A stretch of 64,000 nucleotides of DNA from Podospora anserina (GCA_017654855.1 CM030334.1:1736001-1800000), one strand, 5' to 3'; counted from the first letter of the stretch, positions 52,806 through 62,031 are shown. Translations and numbers: made by a program. The notes: generated by a model not told the origin, from the sequence alone.

Positions 52806-54794
52806 GTTGAACTATTATACTTGCCCCGCCTACCTGGTGAGGTGAGGAGGACGAGGACGAGGACGAGGACGAGGAGGGGGATAAGGAGGAGGAAGTAGGA
52901 GGAGGAGGGGGGATGAGGATAAGGATAGGCAGAGGAAGGTCGAGGGTTGTGAAAGGGTGATGGATAATCTCGAACGATCGAATGCGTTGGCAATGGGGAC
53001 GTTTATTGGAGTTGGGTTGAGGATCCAAAGGGTCGGCGCATCTGTGGCTGGCTGAATTGATGGTATGGTATGGCGGCGTGGCTGGGGGTTGTTATGGTGT
53101 CGTCAACACGCACAGCAACAAGAAAGAAGAAAAGACCAACAACAGACATTGGGCCCTAGTATTATTATTCCATCTGTCTTCTGCGCCAAGTTATGGAACC
53201 AAAAAGTGTATTAAATGAGCTGTTCTCGTTTTGGTGATGCCATGTTCGTGTTTCCCCACATTGTGTTAATTGGGCATATTTGCTGGAGACGAGACACATC
53301 CCATCCATCAACAGCGGCAAACTGGACAGGTGGGTGAGTGGTTTTGCCTCGGCACGCCGGGCACGGGTCGCGCGAGCGCAAAAACGTTCCGCGAACCAAA
53401 GGGGATCCACTTCCCCACAGAGAAAACCCCTGGAAAACAAACCCGGGGAAGATCTTTCAGTGGGCTCAGGCATGTGATTGATATCCGTGCCTTACTTTGC
53501 CCAACCACAACCATACCCATTCATTTCCTTTGTTTTTATGCTTTGTGCTTCTGGAAAACGAAATGCAACCCTTGACAAAATAGTCCAACCGTGTCCCTAC
53601 TTTGGGCCAGTCGATCTGTTTAGTGGTGTAGTTCGCATAACCGGTGGTGGTGTTTGGGGTTAGATGGCCCGCGGATGGTGACCGTGCCAATGATGCGAGT
53701 TCCGAAGGTGTGTCCTGTAAGTCAGAGATAGGCCAGGGGTCTATCGGTGAATCAACCTAACCCATCGCCTACCCCGGATTAAGCTGTCCATGATGTTTGA
53801 CATGGCTACATGCCTTGGTATATATCTGCATGTAATCTCCGATGACAACACACATGGCATTCAGCGTTTATGTAGGACTTGACCGGCAGCATGTGAAGTG
53901 CCCAACGCGAGTCTGAGAAAGACTCCGCGTTTTGATTGCTGTGTGAGAGCTTTACAATCATGTCTTCATCACTTAGCATCCACTCAGTGAGAACCTTACA
54001 TGTACATCCCATGAGTTACAATCTATCTATTTCACACCCAACACACAACAGCTAATCCCACACTCCCAACCCCTTTGCTCCTCCCCTTCCCCAAAGTTGA
54101 GAACGAAATCAAACTAAGCTGACACACAAGAAAGAAAGACTGAACGCACGTATATAACCCCCCCACCCCATCCTCCTCCACCTTCAAGTCCAGGAAAAGT
54201 CTCCTACCAACTCGTCCAGTCCTCTTCCAACAAACCCAACACAGATCTGATGCGCACCACCCTAAACCGTACACCATGTTCCCCCGCTCTGGAGAAAGCA
54301 AGGCAACCTTGAAAGCAAGCTTTTTATCGCCTCAACCCTTCCAGCCGCCAAAATCTCTTCCCTCACAGACCATGCTTTTCTCTTGCCTCTTGCCTCGTCC
54401 AACTTGCTGATATCAAATGCTGAAAATTCTCCCCAAATCATACTCAGTATGCGTACAATAACTGACAAGTAAAACTCCGCCATGGTCCTCAATACCATCC
54501 GTAAGCGGCGCTCAAAACAGCTCTCCCCCACCTCACATCAGTCTCTCCCTCTCTCTCACACCCCCTCCAGTCTCACTCAGCAACCCCCTCAGATAACTCT
54601 CCCAACCTCCTTCTCTCCCCCAGCCTGATTCTCCTCACATCACTACCCGACAATCCGCCCTCCCTCCTTGCCCTCCCTCGCAGCAGCAGCCTTCAAAGAG
54701 CAAACAGTAGGCGTGAATATGCGCGTGGTGTCAGACGTGGCATGGTTGGGATCGGTGAATACCTCCCGCCCAGCGAAGTGTTTTCACCCTGCTC

Positions 54795-56066
54795 CTAAGA
54801 AGGCCTCGCCTTGTTGGTTCCGGCACGCTTCCCGGTCTTCGTGGTGGTCTTGGGAGCAGGGGCGCTGCCGCTGGTCGATGTTGAAGACGGAGGCTTCAGT
54901 GTCTTGCGCCGTTTGGCGTCGCTGGGCCGAAGAGGAGGGATCGTGGTGCTTTCTTCGCCAGCTTGGTTTGTAAATGTGCCGCCGACCTTTCGGTGTGGGG
55001 GAACTACTGTATTGAAGAGCCTGGGGACGGAACCCGCGGTGGGAGTTGCCGCTGGGGGTCTCGTGCCGGGGGTGTTGTGCTGCGAGATGGGCGTCCTGGG
55101 CTGTGATGTGGGAGTCGTCATTGCGGGCCTTGCCCCCGGGACTTTTGGCACCGGAATAGGCGTTGCTGATGTTTTTGGGGGCTTCGAGGTTGAAGATCTG
55201 GACGGCAATGCAGACGCTTTGCCCTGTGCTTTAGGCCGTGAATCCGCTGCTGTCTTGGTCAAAACTGGCAACGCCTTGATCATCGTTGAAGTTGAAGGCT
55301 TGCTAGCCGAGGAGACCGTCTCTTCCCCCCTGATTGCCATGCTAGCAATCTCAGACGTCCGCCGCTTCTTCGGTCTGTGGGACTCGGGCGCTGGAATGGT
55401 ACTCGGTGTATCGTCCTCCCCGCTTAGGACGATCGAATCCCCTGAAGCCGAATCTGGTATTCGAGGCCGCTTACTACGACCGGCAACCGAACCCACCGTC
55501 ATCGCCTTCGATTTAGCAGCAGGCTCCTCAGAAGGGACTGTCTTTTTCAATGCCCGAGACGCTGGCGGTGGTGAGGAGATGCGCATTCTAGAAAATGCCG
55601 CGCTGGAAGGTGTATTTTCAGCATTGTAATCTGGAAGCTGGACCTCGCCCATAGCAGCGGTCGGCTGTGGGGTTCCCGAGTTTTTCAGTATTGACTTCAA
55701 CGGGGTGCTGAGTCTGTTGATCAATCTCATCGGTATCGGCATACCCAACGGGGTTAAGGCAGGTGTCGTTGAAGCCTCAGCTGGTGCCGTTGAAGGCTCA
55801 GCTGGTGCCGTTGAAGGCTCAGCTGGTGTCGTTGAAGGCTCAGTGAGTGTCGTCAAAGTCACAGCTGGTGGCTCCTGCAACATCGGAGGGGGCACGCTGC
55901 TTTGATGGTAGGAAGAGCTGGCGGCAGTCTGCGAGACTGTAATGGGTGACTGTCCATACGTAGATGGCTGCGGTTGAGCACCCCCATCACCTTTGGCTGC
56001 ACTTCCCCCGACGCCTCCACCGGTCTCAGTCCACGCCGGCCAACGTGGGGTTGGCGGTCCCAAGTC
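54795..56066 (-). CDS. 423-codon Pro/Ser/Thr-rich ORF in frame with, and immediately after, the chromodomain gene TAG (candidate readthrough/edited extension)
   Basis: GCT TAG GAC TTG GGA... stays open to TAG at 54795. First ATG only at 55883. Contains a frame-preserving 21-bp tandem repeat. Confidence 0.6.
   Translation of the reverse strand, partial: DLGPPTPRWPAWTETGGGVGGSAAKGDGGAQPQPSTYGQSPITVSQTAASSSYHQSSVPPPMLQEPPAVTLTTLTEPSTTPAEPSTAPAEPSTAPAEASTTPALTPLGMPIPMRLINRLSTPLKSILKNSGTPQPTAAMGEVQLPDYNAENTPSSAAFSRMRISSPPPASRALKKTVPSEEPAAKSKAMTVGSVAGRSKRPRIPDSASGDSIVLSGEDDTPSTIPAPESHRPKKRRTSEIASMAIRGEETVSSASKPSTSTMIKALPVLTKTAADSRPKAQGKASALPSRSSTSKPPKTSATPIPVPKVPGARPAMTTPTSQPRTPISQHNTPGTRPPAATPTAGSVPRLFNTVVPPHRKVGGTFTNQAGEESTTIPPLRPSDAKRRKTLKPPSSTSTSGSAPAPKTTTKTGKRAGTNKARPS
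55762..55843 (-). repeat. 21-bp x4 coding minisatellite (EPSTxPA units)
   Basis: GGTGYCGTTGAAGSCTCAGCT repeated four times on the + strand. Confidence 0.9.
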
Positions 56067-59000
56067 CTAAGCGGAGCCGACTGTTGATCCCTTGTGTTGA
56101 CCAATGCTGAGTGCACCAAAGATGTTTCGCCATGAATCGACCGTTATGTGTGAAAAGCCACGCCCCTCCTCCTCCTGGTCCTTGTACCACTCCGTGGTAG
56201 GTCGAAACCGATACTTCATGTACTGTGAGCGTCGCCCATACCTGTTGCGCCAGAGGCGGGCTTCTTCAAAGAGCCTGTTGGTACACTTGGATGGGGCCCC
56301 GTCGTCCGACAAGGGCCGCCCTGTAGCGCGAGGTGGGTGGAAAATGATGCGGGCGTCTTCCTCATCCGATGTCTCAGAATCCCGGATACCCATCTCCACA
56401 TCGTCCTCGTCAGTAGCTGGATCCGTGGCGAGCTTCACCCTTTTGAATCCTTTATTGGGTCTCAACATGCTGGTACGCGGCGCGGGAATAAGTTTCTTAA
56501 ACTGGAACTCGGTGCCCAAGGCTTGGAGAAATAGAGCCACCACATCAATGTCGTGCGGAGATTGGCATTCTTCCGGGACCATGTAACCCCCAAGCCACAC
56601 ATCGGTCAACCTGGTGCCGGGATTCCTTTCCCCTGTATGCTCCCGTACATGCTTGATCAGTTGCCGCTGCATGAACGTAAGCTCGCCCTCAGTGGGCTGA
56701 CGGTCTCCAAACCTCCTTGGGGCCGCAGGATCCCAGATGATAAGCTCGGCGTCTGTCCACGGTCTCTTAAACGCATCACGTGGCCGATAAAAGACGAGCC
56801 AGGGGTGTCGTTTTGGCGTGCGGTCGTCAGGCTTGTTGTCGGGGTCCCACTCGTCGGGGATGGTATAGAAGAAACCGACATAGGTATTGAACCTCGTGGT
56901 CCCATGCCTTCCTCCCCATGGAAACCCCCATTTGAACCAGCTCGAGATGGTGTTCCAGTGCAGTGTGAAATCTTCGTAATGATCGCCCATGTCGCTATCG
57001 GACCACGAAACTGGAAACCCGAACAAGATCCAGAGGCTGGAATTCCATTCGCTTGGCCCCACATCTTTCAGCATCTCAGCAAGTGAGTGCTGTGATATGC
57101 GACTAAAGCACTCGCTGGAGACCTCGTGCATTGCGAAGGCCTGATACACAGAAGCAGGGGCTGCAGCAGAGGTGGCGGCTGGTGCTATACCTGCGCTCTC
57201 AGCAACAGCGTGGGCTTGTCCGGATTGCTCGGCCTGCGTGTTGCAAACACGGTAGTGCTCCAAGGTACCCTTCAACACGTAGTCTGAGTCATTGATGGTG
57301 CGGCTGGTGTACCTTGGAACGGCGATTTCTCGCTCGCCTCTTTCAGACCGACGCGCTGTTATGGAGTCGTCTGTACCAAGAACGTAGAAGTGGCGGAACT
57401 GATCCAATCGCAGTGTTGACCAGTACCCAAACCAGTTGACGAGGCTTTGCTCGTCATTGGGGTCGATCTTGTCAATAGCATAGACCAGCGTGGCGCTCTC
57501 CTCGTTGTCACCAACAGGCGGGAGTTTTCGACGTCTCAGGTCGTCCAGCTCATAGGCCTTTGTAGCGGCAGTAAACCGGCTCTCGCAATCTTCCTTGCTT
57601 AAACCTTTCAAGTTTTCGAGAATGGCAAGATTGGCCGTGCTCTCCATCGCTGCTGGAGAGGCTAGCAGCTTGGCTCGATCATGCTCCTTCTCCTCAGCCA
57701 AGTCCCTGAGGTAGGCTGCAAAGTCCCATGCGGTAACAAGACGACATGTTGTGGATTTGGCAAAGTACATCAGAAACCAGTCAATGATTTCGAGGGCTCG
57801 AGTTGGTTCCGCTACCAGAAAGCTTGGGGTCAATAATATGGCCGCCCCTAGGGGAAACAAGCGCGTGAGCTGGAGTTGGCCTGGAGGCACCACAGAACTT
57901 TCTTCCAACAGCGAAGTTGTTGATGGATACATCGGGAGCTTGCTCATCGGCTCTGTAAAGCACCAAAACTGATCATCTCGGCTAAGTAAGAGATGTCGCA
58001 GATTCGGGAGCCTGTGCAAAGTCCACGCCATCAGCTCATGTACGATGACCACACCCGCTGTCTCTTCTGAGCTGAGCTTGTTCTGGAAGGCATACCAGCT
58101 CCCAGGATGGTCGCTTGTGAAGATACAGCAGTTGGGCTCACATGCACGGAGCCAGTGAAATAGCAAGAGACGAACTTCGACCTTTGAGTCAGGAAATGCC
58201 AGGAAGAAGTTATGTGTCGATGCGGGCTTCAAGCTGGTTGGTAGCAGCCTCTGGTAGTCAAAACCGAAGAACTTTTCCATGATCAGTTGCCGATTTGAGG
58301 ACTCCTTGCCAGCGCCAGGCGGCTTGGGTGGCACATCCCGGGGTGGCGGCAGCAGGGCCAGGAGGGGCTCGTGTGGTGTAAATATGTAGTACAAGAGCTC
58401 AAATTCAGATGGATCTGACGCTGGAAGTCCCCTGAGCTGAACGGCATTCCATTCTTCACACTTTGACGGGTATATGAGAATGCTGAAGTCTGGCTGAGCA
58501 CAAAGCAGTCCCATAATGCTGGCTCGTAAAGAACTCGCCACATTTTGTAGCCTTTGTTGGTCGGTATTAGAACTTAAGCCGCCAAAGGCCAAGCCAGTTT
58601 TAACCATTGAGTGCAGTGCGGTAGCTACCGACGTAGCAAGGCAACTGTGGTCAAACTCCAAGCTCTCCGTGGCTAGAAACCTTGCATACAGCTCATCACG
58701 AGTCCCATCAGGTAACCCGTTGAAAGTTGTTTGAATACATTTGGACCCAGGCTGGGGCTTGCCAAACCTAACCCGCTTTTCTGAACAGGTATTGCGTTGG
58801 GGTATGATGGTAACTGTTGGCTCAGGAGCAGACAATGTAGGAGGTGGGGTAGGAGGCCGAGCAGCGAGAGATGCTGCAGGCCGTGGAGTGGCCTCAACTT
58901 GATCTTTTTGCACAAGAGTATTATCGTCCAAGTCCATGGGATCCGGCTCACGGAATTCGATGACGCTGTTCACGTCGTCATCCCATCTCACCGACTTCCG

Positions 59001-60473
59001 CTTTTTCAAAGGGGGCCTTGAGATTGGTGCCGTGTGTGCTTGTGGTGATGATGGCAGGCATGCTGAAGGCGGTGGCAGGCCCGCTGAGGCTGGCGCTGGG
59101 TCAATTGTTCTTGGTGAGATTCCTGCCGACGTCGCTGTGAGGCCTGCTGAGGTTGCCGGCACTAGGCCTGTCGAGATCGGTGCAAGGCCGGTCCGACTGG
59201 AGGAAATGGGTGCTGTTATGTCTTCTGGGTCCGACTCCAGCTCCATCGAATAGTCGCCAACAAAAAGGCTGTCGTCTTCCGGTAGATCCGTCGGTTGTGC
59301 AGTTTCCTTGGACATCTTTCTCGCTGCAGCAGGCCCCTCGGTCAGGGGGAAGAGGGCTACCTTTGAAGGGTCAGGGGCAATGTCTTCCCTCGCACGGCTA
59401 CGAAGTTCGGCCAATCTCCCAAGATGCATGTTGCTGAAGGGCTTGGGGTCCTTTGCGGGATTGGACATAACCTCCTCAATGACAGGCCGTGGTTTCCTTA
59501 CTTTACCGCCAGTAAAGATGTTCCCCGTCTTGCTTTGGACGGTCTTTTGGGTCGACTTGCGGGCCGTTGTCTTTTGGCCCGACGGCGCTCTTTTGCTAGA
59601 TGCGGCACCCTTGGAACCGAGGTTTGATTCCTTGGTCTTTGATTTTGACGGGCCGCTCATGTCGTCTTTACTTGCTTTTCTTGCAGTTCCCTCGTATCCA
59701 GTGGTCGACGGAGCTGTAGCCTGCCGTTTCTTTGTGGAAGATGATGCCAGTGGGTCGGAGGTCGCTGCAGGTTTGGCTAGTTTGCCTGGGAGGCTTGCTG
59801 GCCTATCCTTGTTTGGTTTTGACAAGGCCGAGGACTTCAGAGGCTTGGACTTTGTTGGCGATTTGGGAGCAGTGGTCTTAATAGGCCTTGCAACGCCCTT
59901 CTTATAAATCGAGGTCAAAGATGGTTTTCGTGCCTTGGGTGGCTTGGGCCGAGGGGCCGACACTTCCACAACATCGCCATCCTCACTCGCCTCATCACTA
60001 CTCGAATCATCTTCTGGAATAGCACTTGACTTGGACGATGATGCTGGCAAAGGCTCGGTCAAGGGAAGACCCAGCCGGGCGCGCTTCGCATTACGAAGAT
60101 TGTGCCTTTCTCTTTTCTCCCGCTCCTTTTGTTGTTGAACTGCAAAGTACCTGTCGACATCAAAAGGCTTCTCTTCGCCAGCTTCTTGCTTGGCCTTGGT
60201 CTCTGCCCACTGGGCAATCATATCATCACCAAAAATCTCTGCGGGCTCCCAAGTGCTGTCCCAGAACGGATCAAACCGGGTAGCATCCCACTGAACGAGA
60301 TAGTACATGATTCCGTTTTGGTTTGGGCGTTCAGCCAGAATCGATTCGACGACATACTCCTCGTCGTCGGGGGGAGGGATTGTGGATGTCAATGAGATCG
60401 CATCATCATCGCTCTCAGCCGGGCCGTCGTCCAGCCTCGATGGCCAACTCTCCACGAGGATATTCTTGAACAT
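56067..60473 (-). CDS. Large chromodomain-containing protein, about 1468 aa (Chp1-like architecture)
   Basis: N-terminal chromodomain EEYVVESILAE..YYLVQW..STWEPAE, a long disordered linker and a globular C-terminal half. The start codon is uncertain. Confidence 0.85.
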   Translation of the reverse strand: MFKNILVESWPSRLDDGPAESDDDAISLTSTIPPPDDEEYVVESILAERPNQNGIMYYLVQWDATRFDPFWDSTWEPAEIFGDDMIAQWAETKAKQEAGEEKPFDVDRYFAVQQQKEREKRERHNLRNAKRARLGLPLTEPLPASSSKSSAIPEDDSSSDEASEDGDVVEVSAPRPKPPKARKPSLTSIYKKGVARPIKTTAPKSPTKSKPLKSSALSKPNKDRPASLPGKLAKPAATSDPLASSSTKKRQATAPSTTGYEGTARKASKDDMSGPSKSKTKESNLGSKGAASSKRAPSGQKTTARKSTQKTVQSKTGNIFTGGKVRKPRPVIEEVMSNPAKDPKPFSNMHLGRLAELRSRAREDIAPDPSKVALFPLTEGPAAARKMSKETAQPTDLPEDDSLFVGDYSMELESDPEDITAPISSSRTGLAPISTGLVPATSAGLTATSAGISPRTIDPAPASAGLPPPSACLPSSPQAHTAPISRPPLKKRKSVRWDDDVNSVIEFREPDPMDLDDNTLVQKDQVEATPRPAASLAARPPTPPPTLSAPEPTVTIIPQRNTCSEKRVRFGKPQPGSKCIQTTFNGLPDGTRDELYARFLATESLEFDHSCLATSVATALHSMVKTGLAFGGLSSNTDQQRLQNVASSLRASIMGLLCAQPDFSILIYPSKCEEWNAVQLRGLPASDPSEFELLYYIFTPHEPLLALLPPPRDVPPKPPGAGKESSNRQLIMEKFFGFDYQRLLPTSLKPASTHNFFLAFPDSKVEVRLLLFHWLRACEPNCCIFTSDHPGSWYAFQNKLSSEETAGVVIVHELMAWTLHRLPNLRHLLLSRDDQFWCFTEPMSKLPMYPSTTSLLEESSVVPPGQLQLTRLFPLGAAILLTPSFLVAEPTRALEIIDWFLMYFAKSTTCRLVTAWDFAAYLRDLAEEKEHDRAKLLASPAAMESTANLAILENLKGLSKEDCESRFTAATKAYELDDLRRRKLPPVGDNEESATLVYAIDKIDPNDEQSLVNWFGYWSTLRLDQFRHFYVLGTDDSITARRSERGEREIAVPRYTSRTINDSDYVLKGTLEHYRVCNTQAEQSGQAHAVAESAGIAPAATSAAAPASVYQAFAMHEVSSECFSRISQHSLAEMLKDVGPSEWNSSLWILFGFPVSWSDSDMGDHYEDFTLHWNTISSWFKWGFPWGGRHGTTRFNTYVGFFYTIPDEWDPDNKPDDRTPKRHPWLVFYRPRDAFKRPWTDAELIIWDPAAPRRFGDRQPTEGELTFMQRQLIKHVREHTGERNPGTRLTDVWLGGYMVPEECQSPHDIDVVALFLQALGTEFQFKKLIPAPRTSMLRPNKGFKRVKLATDPATDEDDVEMGIRDSETSDEEDARIIFHPPRATGRPLSDDGAPSKCTNRLFEEARLWRNRYGRRSQYMKYRFRPTTEWYKDQEEEGRGFSHITVDSWRNIFGALSIGQHKGSTVGSA

Positions 60474-62031
60474 GGTGGGCAAGTGCTGTTGGACAGGCAG
60501 GGGCGGTTGGTGCTGGCATCAATGGTCGATGCCCGAAGGCTCTTGACCATGCACCACCCGGTGGAGCTAGTTCTGGCAATTTATTTGGGCCAGATATGTG
60601 CGTGGTGTGAGATGCTACACTCAAGTTAGCATTTGATGCAGACTGTAAGGTAGGTGATGGTGTTTGAAGTTCGGCTCAACTCACCAGGAGAATCGATTGA
60701 TCGGACGATAGGTCGGTTCGATGTGCTGTGATATGGGATGATTTATTTCCACGCACCGTGAAACAAAGGATGCCCCACGAAGGTTTCCTTTGATTCGTTT
60801 GCTGTTCACTGAAGCAGATGTGAGATGAAGTTGAGAAGCGACTTCAGGAGTGTGAACCAATGAGGCCTGAGGTCCCACTAAATAATTGCTAGGGGTTGGT
60901 TGCTGGGTGAAGCTGCCCCACCATCACAAGTATCACCAAACAGGCAAGAACGGCCCTTCAGTATCAACCCCGCTCTTCAATTGGATCAGGATTTGGGTAT
61001 TGCCCTCAGGAGAGGCAGGAAAGGGCCATCCAAGGCAGCGGGAATTGGCAGTTTGAGGTGTTGCCTCAGCAATGGCCCGGTCATCGACACCAAGAACAGC
61101 TTCGCTCTGTCTTGCAGGGTTCTTTTGTTGAATATCATTGTAGGAGAGACCACAATAGCTCATGCCGCAGCAGTAAAGCCTCTTGGACAGCTGAATAATG
61201 TTTTTGATGGAGAAATAGCCAACGCGGATCCAATATCAAGAGACTAGAGCCTTGAGCTCTCACAGCATAGGTTGATGTGTTTGGGTCTCTGAAAAGTGGA
61301 CACTGGCCTCAATTTTTGAGTTGGCTAGTGGCCGCCTCGCACCACAAAAACACCGAAAAAGCTTAATTATAACACTTGCAAGTTCTCGCTCCTTGTGATG
61401 CTGTCAGCCTTGATATTTGTCTTTGCACATCAACCATGTCGTCGGTATCTGGACGTGGGGAGAGCCGATGCTACCCTTGTAAGTTCAAGCTTCAGCACGT
61501 GACATCCCCTTTGCAGTGCATGGTTCAAGTTTGAAGACCCCGGCTTGTCCGAGTCCCGAGAGTGACAAGTGCACTGGACTCCGCTACGGATTTGACAGAG
61601 AGATGCTGTGTCTCTGAACAAAGTATTGAGAGCCGGACCTTTATTCAGGTTGTCCCGGCACTTTTCCGACAGACCCCCGGACAAACCAAAAGAACCTGGA
61701 AGGGCCAAAGATAGACGACAGCAAAGCCCGCTATCAGCCATCCTAAAACAGGCGCCGAACACCGCCACTTGTTCGTCAGCTGGGGCGCTCGACCAACTGC
61801 TGGACCGAGACCCACTGGCCTGAGCCGCACCGCCCTGCCCTCATTGACTCCTGGACGCTGCTTGCCTGGGCGTTTGAACCTGGTATTTGGCATCTGGCTG
61901 GCTTTGGCATTCCGTCTTTGTGCACTTGCATCAACGAATCCAGCTTCGACCCATCGACCGAGACAACCTCCCCGGCACATTTCAGATTTCAAGAAACCAC
62001 AAGCACCCTCACCTCTCACCTCATCGCAGCC

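Follow-up and report, generated by a model that had tools for sequence, protein, structure and literature searches.

How does a gene of Podospora anserina that encodes a chromodomain protein come to be followed, directly behind its TAG stop codon and in the same frame, by a further 423 open codons, and by what route might these be translated? The gene lies in a 64,000-nucleotide (nt) stretch of genomic DNA (GCA_017654855.1 CM030334.1:1736001-1800000), hereafter called the window, to which all gene coordinates refer, and its features are on the minus strand. Judged from its sequence, the continuation (hereafter the tail) is genuine coding sequence of the chromodomain gene. We favour the explanation that the tail is reached by A-to-I stop-loss editing of UAG to UGG during the sexual stage, a reading that in our judgement could equally well turn out right or wrong. 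The parts of the gene, including its 5' and 3' untranslated regions (UTRs) and the open reading frame (ORF) of the tail, are as follows.

60685..60821, minus strand: first exon of the 5'UTR; contig ends at 60821, 60814 and 60819 in runs X1, X2 and X5
60615..60684, minus strand: 5'UTR intron of 70 nt, canonical GTGAGT..GCTAAC..TAG; joint 60614->60685 in four of four runs
56070..60473, minus strand: main coding sequence (short form), a single exon of 1468 codons; ATG at 60473, last sense codon at 56070
60207..60356, minus strand: chromodomain, residues 40-89; Pfam Chromo and family profile
56067..56141, minus strand: last 24 sense codons (VDSWRNIFGALSIGQHKGSTVGSA) and TAG, also the 75-nt candidate intron GTCGAT..TTAG; retained in RNA
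56067..56069, minus strand: TAG stop of the short form; the A proposed to be edited is minus-strand 56068
54798..56066, minus strand: in-frame tail ORF, 423 codons, rich in P/S/T/A; open frame, orthologue models, and contigs in four of four runs
55762..55870, minus strand: 21-bp tandem repeat, 5.2 copies, 87% matches, EPST.PA heptads, in frame
55356..55376, minus strand: basic cluster RPKKRRT, with the core KKRRTSE invariant in four of four tails
54795..54797, minus strand: second stop, TAG, end of the long form
54633..54794, minus strand: start of the long-form 3'UTR; tail contigs, starting at 54633, 54641, 54689 and 54691

The tail as coding sequence

An initial annotation of this DNA had described an in-frame extension of 423 amino acids (aa; 1269 nt) behind a single TAG, and the frame is indeed open from 56066 to 54798 and closes with the TAG at 54797-54795. 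The two other frames of the tail hold 15 and 16 stops, against none in the open one, and 423 open codons would arise by chance with P of about 3e-5 (calculated analytically from the tail's own stop-triplet frequency of 0.0245). A search with the computed readthrough product, which at 1468 + 1 + 423 = 1892 residues has the length that the annotation had proposed for a long form, found the tail fused to the main body in three orthologue models of Podosporaceae (P0005, P0006 and P0007), from Cercophora samala (1816 aa), Triangularia setosa (1802 aa) and Apiosordaria backusii (1815 aa). Over aligned pairs, the tail of the window is 52-56% identical to those of the three orthologues, which are 54-62% identical among themselves, and the main body is 66-73% identical to the three. 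All four tails agree in 123 of 445 columns, and the invariant blocks include TPLGMPIPMRLIN..KSILKNSGTPQPTA, KKRRTSE and TTIPPLRPS.

The tail is homologous from its very first codon onward (D/N..P..P.WPAW). The first ATG had been placed 61 codons into the tail, and it is codon 62 (55883-55881); its Met is conserved in none of the three orthologues, which have K, S or A at this position, and the next Mets (GMPIPM) are missing in A. backusii. Since homology spans the 61 codons before this non-conserved Met, a separately initiated tail protein is unlikely. With 72% S/T/P/A/G/K/R and 1.9% aromatic residues, the tail is probably disordered. The basic clusters SKRPRI, RPKKRRT and AKRRKT are present as described, beginning at tail residues 198, 231 and 384. 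The accompanying emphasis on a tail rich in nuclear localisation signals was not supported: conserved basic clusters (for example PLKKRKSVRW) occur in the short form too, which could therefore enter the nucleus without the tail. The repeat does preserve the frame with its 21-bp period, but it has 5.2 copies instead of the four that had been counted. It is missing from all three orthologue tails, where the alignment has a gap.

An exhaustive search with the tail alone gave three matches at E<=0.001, one of which is a true relative, namely the cluster of the long models. The other two, a 3588-aa protein (2.8e-7 over 70 residues) and a 75-aa fragment, were set aside, and searches with the tail alone thus found no convincing relative beyond the three species. 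In a search for short protein fragments across the junction (P0003 residues 1410-1570), none of 1833 candidates scored.

The candidate intron around the stop codon

The three long models pass from ..EEEGRGFSHI(T) directly to the tail and thereby omit about 25 codons around the stop, which in the window correspond to VDSWRNIFGALSIGQHKGSTVGSA and the stop itself. Their junctions read ..SHIT|NPGP.. in P0005, ..SHM|ADSEP.. in P0006 and ..SHI|ANSEP.. in P0007. Six proteins keep the omitted stretch (those of the window, T. verruculosa, Sordaria brevicollis and Parathielavia hyrcaniae, and two assembly-derived proteins), and all six conserve V-D-S-W..IF..L.IG, or in a more general form V-x-x-W..[IV]F..L.IG; four of them end in [VI/A]GS[AG].

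The sole GT..AG pair of the window that keeps the frame consists of the GT at 56141-56140 and the AG at 56068-56067, 75 nt in all. Fungal introns have the consensus donor GTRNGT and the branch motif CTRAY; the candidate matches neither, its donor being GTCGAT and a CTRAY motif being absent. The statement of the initial annotation that there is no convincing in-frame donor with a branch site is therefore right as to the weak donor and the missing branch motif, although a GT in frame is present at 56141, 75 nt upstream. This GT is part of the conserved Val codon, as the AG is of the stop itself, and any Val codon upstream of an in-frame TAG would therefore supply a frame-keeping GT..AG pair for free. 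Two other donors were considered and rejected: GTATGG at 56241 would give an intron of 175 nt that is out of frame and costs conserved residues, and GTGCAC at 56116 one of 50 nt that is likewise out of frame. The three public gene models probably hold an invented intron. A weak in-frame intron that hides a stop and removes conserved residues can, moreover, serve as a guide to such sites where perithecial RNA is lacking.

Retention of the stop codon in RNA contigs

Contigs of four runs from four studies were aligned to the window; the developmental stage is not recorded, and contigs drop minor variants. No run is on record as RNA, and the contigs were taken as spliced RNA because the 70-nt GT..AG stretch at 60615-60684 is removed in four of four runs. 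In every run a contig bridges 56067-56141 without a joint and with 0 differing letters, and in X1 one and the same contig has the 5'UTR intron removed and the 75 nt retained. An exon joint 56142|56066 was found in the contigs of none of the four runs, from which a rare form could have been dropped. The X1 contig (record 4) is uninterrupted over the main coding sequence, from 55799 to 60614. Hence, the coding region is one exon, and the dominant transcript keeps the stop unspliced; the earlier claim that the TAG is not a splice acceptor is borne out for the dominant RNA of all four runs.

The tail is transcribed. Each run has a contig that crosses the TAG as far as 55799, and this speaks against polyadenylation right after the TAG in that transcript form. 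A poly(A) site just after 56067, together with a separate transcript starting near 55883, was the arrangement that the initial annotation had itself named as counting against a long form. A second contig, running from 55805 to 54633-54691, covers the rest of the tail in all four runs. The break at 55799-55805 coincides with the 21-bp repeat, as expected for a word-based assembly, and continuity of the molecule across it is likely. The depth of the tail contig relative to the other was 36.6 v 20.7, 21.4 v 14.3, 27.9 v 10.2 and 23.6 v 7.31; since depth is one figure per contig, the higher values of the tail can show neither a separate tail transcript nor a 3' bias. Judged by the reach of the contigs, the 5'UTR starts at least at 60814-60821, and its intron lies 141 nt upstream of the ATG at 60473. 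Coverage gaps at 53767-54033 and beyond about 60975 were not used as evidence.

Stop-loss editing as the favoured explanation

Under stop-loss editing, one mRNA would give rise to two proteins. Ordinary translation gives the 1468-residue chromodomain protein ending at the UAG, and the end of this short form, ..V/I-G-S-A/G, is common to other Sordariales. The tail would be reached by recoding of the stop and not by splicing: tRNA-type adenosine deaminases would turn UAG into UIG, which would be read as UGG (Trp). The outcome would be a 1892-residue isoform made in fruiting bodies only, in which the tail with its invariant blocks would give the chromatin reader other partners, another localisation or a different stability during that stage. 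The length and conservation of the tail suggest specific interactions rather than destabilisation. A link of the long form to heterochromatin or genome defence is speculation.

A-to-I mRNA editing in the sexual stage is established in Fusarium, Neurospora, Sordaria and Pyronema, and the published fungal preference is for U at -1 (over 70% of sites), A/G at +1 and +3, and hairpin loops (excerpts of PMC11156358). In F. graminearum, 323-403 genes carry stop-loss edits of UAG to UGG (excerpts of PMC4817773 and PMC13123824), and in PUK1 and 69 other genes automated annotation had hidden in-frame UAGs in erroneous introns (excerpt of PMC4817773). The stop of the window gene stands in the context GGC TCC GCT TAG GAC TTG, that is, with U at -1 and -2, G at +1 and A at +3 around A 56068. 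The U residues and the purines had been pointed out correctly in the initial annotation, and they fit the published preference. In its UAG context, in the unremoved 'intron' of its relatives' models and in its conserved in-frame continuation, the locus shows the same signature as the published cases.

More distant members of the family were sought in a metagenome scan with the family alignment, which gave 21 loci of 29-39% identity, 12 of them with a visible stop. This stop is TAG in eight of the 12 (L001, L003, L011, L012, L013, L014, L019 and L021). Together with the window, TAG thus accounts for 9 of 13 visible stops, compared with 17 of 58 among the other ORFs of this DNA that reach 250 codons or more, an excess with P=0.003 on the assumption of independent loci; with the close pairs L013/L014 and L001/L003 each counted once, the figures are 7 of 11 and P=0.019. 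The block TCY GCT TAG RAY (S-A-stop-D/N) occurs in the window, L001 and L019, and S-A-stop also in L011. Open in-frame codons behind the stop number 350 in L014, 332 in L013, 115 in L019, 81 in L001, 73 in L011 and 57 in L010, whose stop is TGA; the remaining relatives with a visible stop have at most 20. These extensions show no detectable homology to the tail of Podosporaceae (best blastp E 0.098; nothing below E 0.16 with a profile). The two longest, L013:3811-4806 and L014:3220-4269, carry SGSERRPEPSQSF-like repeats, end in ..KASRKRK and differ by a 54-nt in-frame indel.

Several results weigh against stop-loss editing. No A-to-G change was seen at 56068, where the contigs of all four runs have the genomic letter; this speaks solely against high-level editing in those samples. 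None of the folds around the UAG beats its shuffles (z +0.88, -0.20 and +0.96 for 41, 61 and 101 nt), and the A lies in a hairpin loop in one of three folds (41 nt) and in an internal loop at 61 and 81 nt. Local folds in five relatives were no better than shuffles either (z +0.40 to -1.98), and TGA stops are found in hairpin loops too (in L016 and L020 at three of three fold sizes, in L010 at one of three), so that loop position does not discriminate. Conservation of the TAG together with an open tail in orthologues, which had been proposed as a check, holds for the tail in the three long models; the in-frame TAG of these species is inferred from the models, and in two of them the junction is offset by one residue (SHM|A.., SHI|A..). 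As to the metagenome relatives, four of the 12 end otherwise, with TGA in L010, L016 and L020 and TAA in L017, and L013 and L014, which have the longest extensions, carry C instead of U at -1. Between these two, purifying selection on the tail was not seen: the 16 tail substitutions fall 6, 6 and 4 on the three codon positions, with a density resembling that of the downstream DNA, as against 2, 1 and 6 in the main ORF. Finally, since a TAG also provides the AG of an acceptor, the excess of TAG does not separate editing from splicing.

Alternative explanations

Alternative splicing is, in our view, unlikely. It would mean that the weak 75-nt intron is removed rarely or at a particular stage, joining ..GFSHIT to DLGPPTPRW.. 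in a 1867-residue isoform, with retention giving the short form. The GT at 56141-56140 and the AG at 56068-56067 are there and 75 nt keeps the frame, the annotated orthologues P0005, P0006 and P0007 use the equivalent junction, the excess of TAG in the family would suit an acceptor as well, and a minor spliced form is compatible with contigs that drop rare isoforms. Yet the candidate shows no joint in four of four runs, though the 5'UTR intron is removed in all four, and its GTCGAT donor has no consensus G at +5 and no CTRAY behind it, whereas the verified intron of the same gene reads GTGAGT..GCTAAC..TAG. The pair itself comes at no cost from the Val codon and the stop, removal of the intron would delete a peptide that six of six proteins conserve, and automated annotation is documented to invent introns around edited UAGs (excerpt of PMC4817773). 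Translational readthrough, constitutive or regulated, by which some ribosomes would decode the unedited UAG with a near-cognate tRNA, we consider improbable. Readthrough is promoted in contexts such as UGA CUA and UAG CAR YYA, none of which is matched by UAG GAC UUG. UGA, the leakiest stop, is in the minority in the family (3 of 12), the enrichment of TAG being a better fit to editing or splicing, and folds of the window gave no significant structure downstream. Moreover, a tail identity of 52-62%, near the 66-73% of the main body, suggests more than a trace product. What speaks for readthrough is that the tail is in frame and conserved from the first post-stop codon, that contigs cross the stop unspliced and unedited, and that long in-frame extensions occur in several relatives, including a gene with TGA (L010, 57 codons).

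It is very improbable that in this species the tail forms no part of the chromodomain protein at all, being translated instead from a start of its own or from a shorter RNA separate from the main one, or else persisting as an open relic that recently fell out of use. Conservation extends over all 61 codons before the first ATG, the Met is conserved in none of three orthologues and the GMPIPM Mets are missing in A. backusii; in all four runs a contig of the main ORF crosses the TAG and, passing 55883, reaches 55799; and an unused frame would stay open for 423 codons with P of about 3e-5. On the other side, the contigs break at the 21-bp repeat, so that one unbroken molecule between the TAG and 54798 is likely rather than demonstrated, most Sordariales relatives are annotated with the short form alone (P0008-P0012), and the tail has no relatives outside the three species.

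The favoured explanation, stop-loss editing, could be extended from the one gene to its relatives. Stop bypass would then be an old property of the whole chromodomain family, the conserved S-A-UAG-D/N block would present the UAG for editing, and each lineage would have grown its own long, disordered, repeat-bearing and basic tail (423 codons here, 332-350 in L013/L014, 115 in L019 and 81 in L001). We regard such a family-wide switch as doubtful. If it were true, fruiting-body tissue would systematically carry a re-tooled chromatin reader, and the tail would surpass all known stop-loss extensions in length and conservation and be an extension with a sequence-specific function instead of a generic degron.

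Comparison with known editing systems

Stop-loss editing in filamentous ascomycetes (FgDBF2; hundreds of genes in Neurospora crassa) resembles the window gene in the U at -1 of its UAG and in the disordered in-frame extension that prolongs the C-terminus. In those cases, as here, the short form is the conserved ordinary protein, and the extended form would appear just where editing is active. The short extension of FgDBF2 has been described as a degron, whereas that of the window gene has 423 residues, 52-62% identity and invariant blocks in four species. Cases of the FgDBF2 type are known from observed editing, the window gene as a stop-loss candidate from sequence and contigs. With premature-stop-correcting (PSC) editing as in PUK1, the locus shares an in-frame UAG between two conserved coding parts, as well as relatives' models that hide the UAG in an intron, which the RNA of the window species retains in four of four runs. 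In contrast to PSC genes, of which the unedited product is truncated and presumably non-functional, the short form of the window gene is a full, widely conserved protein with all conserved domains. As it ends where the Sordariales orthologues end, the case would be one of stop-loss rather than repair. The protein encoded by rfk-1 of the Neurospora spore killer Sk-2 is short when translation ends at an early UAG, and long when editing of this codon lets translation continue to a late stop (excerpt of bioRxiv 10.1101/2020.12.30.424869); rfk-1 is an unrelated gene and a selfish element, whereas the window gene encodes a conserved chromatin protein.

According to excerpted text of a 2024 review, no stop-loss event had been functionally characterised (PMC11156358), and excerpts of a later study describe stop-loss tails as short and destabilising (PMC13123824). 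A literature search, which lay outside the editing-site tables of Neurospora, Fusarium and Sordaria, found nothing on this gene or on a chromodomain stop-loss case. If editing were confirmed, the phenomenon would be a known one and the gene would stand out by the size and conservation of its extension. It would then be an unusually clear test case for the purpose of stop-loss editing, since with a conserved tail of 423 residues on a chromatin reader, TAA and TGG alleles should give readable phenotypes.

The chromodomain protein and its family

The chromodomain named in the initial annotation finds support in profile comparisons. Residues 40-89 of the window protein match Pfam Chromo (PF00385) with E 3.6e-4 and 20.8 bits, which is under the curated cut-off of 25.1; this match is backed by the nine aligned family members, all of which match Chromo at E<=0.01 (best 2.7e-12), and by the family profile, which finds solved chromodomains of HP1, CBX5 and Chp1 with E of about 1e-8. 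An N-terminal chromodomain is what the window protein has in common with proteins of the HP1/CBX type; unlike these, it has no chromoshadow domain. Pfam and structure profile searches found no Pfam family and no solved relative for the remaining ~1380 residues. Within these, residues ~560-1468 (56070-58790) are conserved, with Trp, Pro and Asp invariant in many columns (as in IDPNDEQSLVNWFG.W), and, being without a Pfam family or solved relative, they appear from their sequence to form an uncharacterised domain.

In the protein search the closest named relatives were from Sordariales, the nearest of all from Podosporaceae, and the nearest clusters of the protein atlas are named just 'Chromo domain-containing protein'. 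Short forms of Sordariales (P0008, P0010, P0011 and the window, 56070-56081) end in [VIA]-G-S-[AG]-stop behind a highly variable low-complexity linker. What is conserved at this end is a peptide motif of the C-terminus or else an element of the RNA at the stop.

A 1468-aa protein from public assemblies (P0004) is almost identical to the short form of the window. At codon 1009, in the motif IDPNDEQSLVNWF, P0004 has K and the window has Q; the column is invariant in the nine-sequence alignment, and the contigs of the four runs agree with the window.

Other differences between contigs and window

All four runs differ from the window at 54974 (A>C on the plus strand), which causes F365V in the tail, and at 60408 (A>G on the plus strand), which is synonymous in codon 22. 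Neither change is A-to-G on the transcript strand, and they therefore look like strain differences. One contig of X1 joins 54530 to 54633 and so skips 102 nt (54531-54632) between two copies of an 8-nt direct repeat. The skipped part is a purine-rich stretch of the 3'UTR whose ends are not GT..AG in any register, and the other three runs end their contigs there; a deletion in the strain or an error of assembly may account for the skip.

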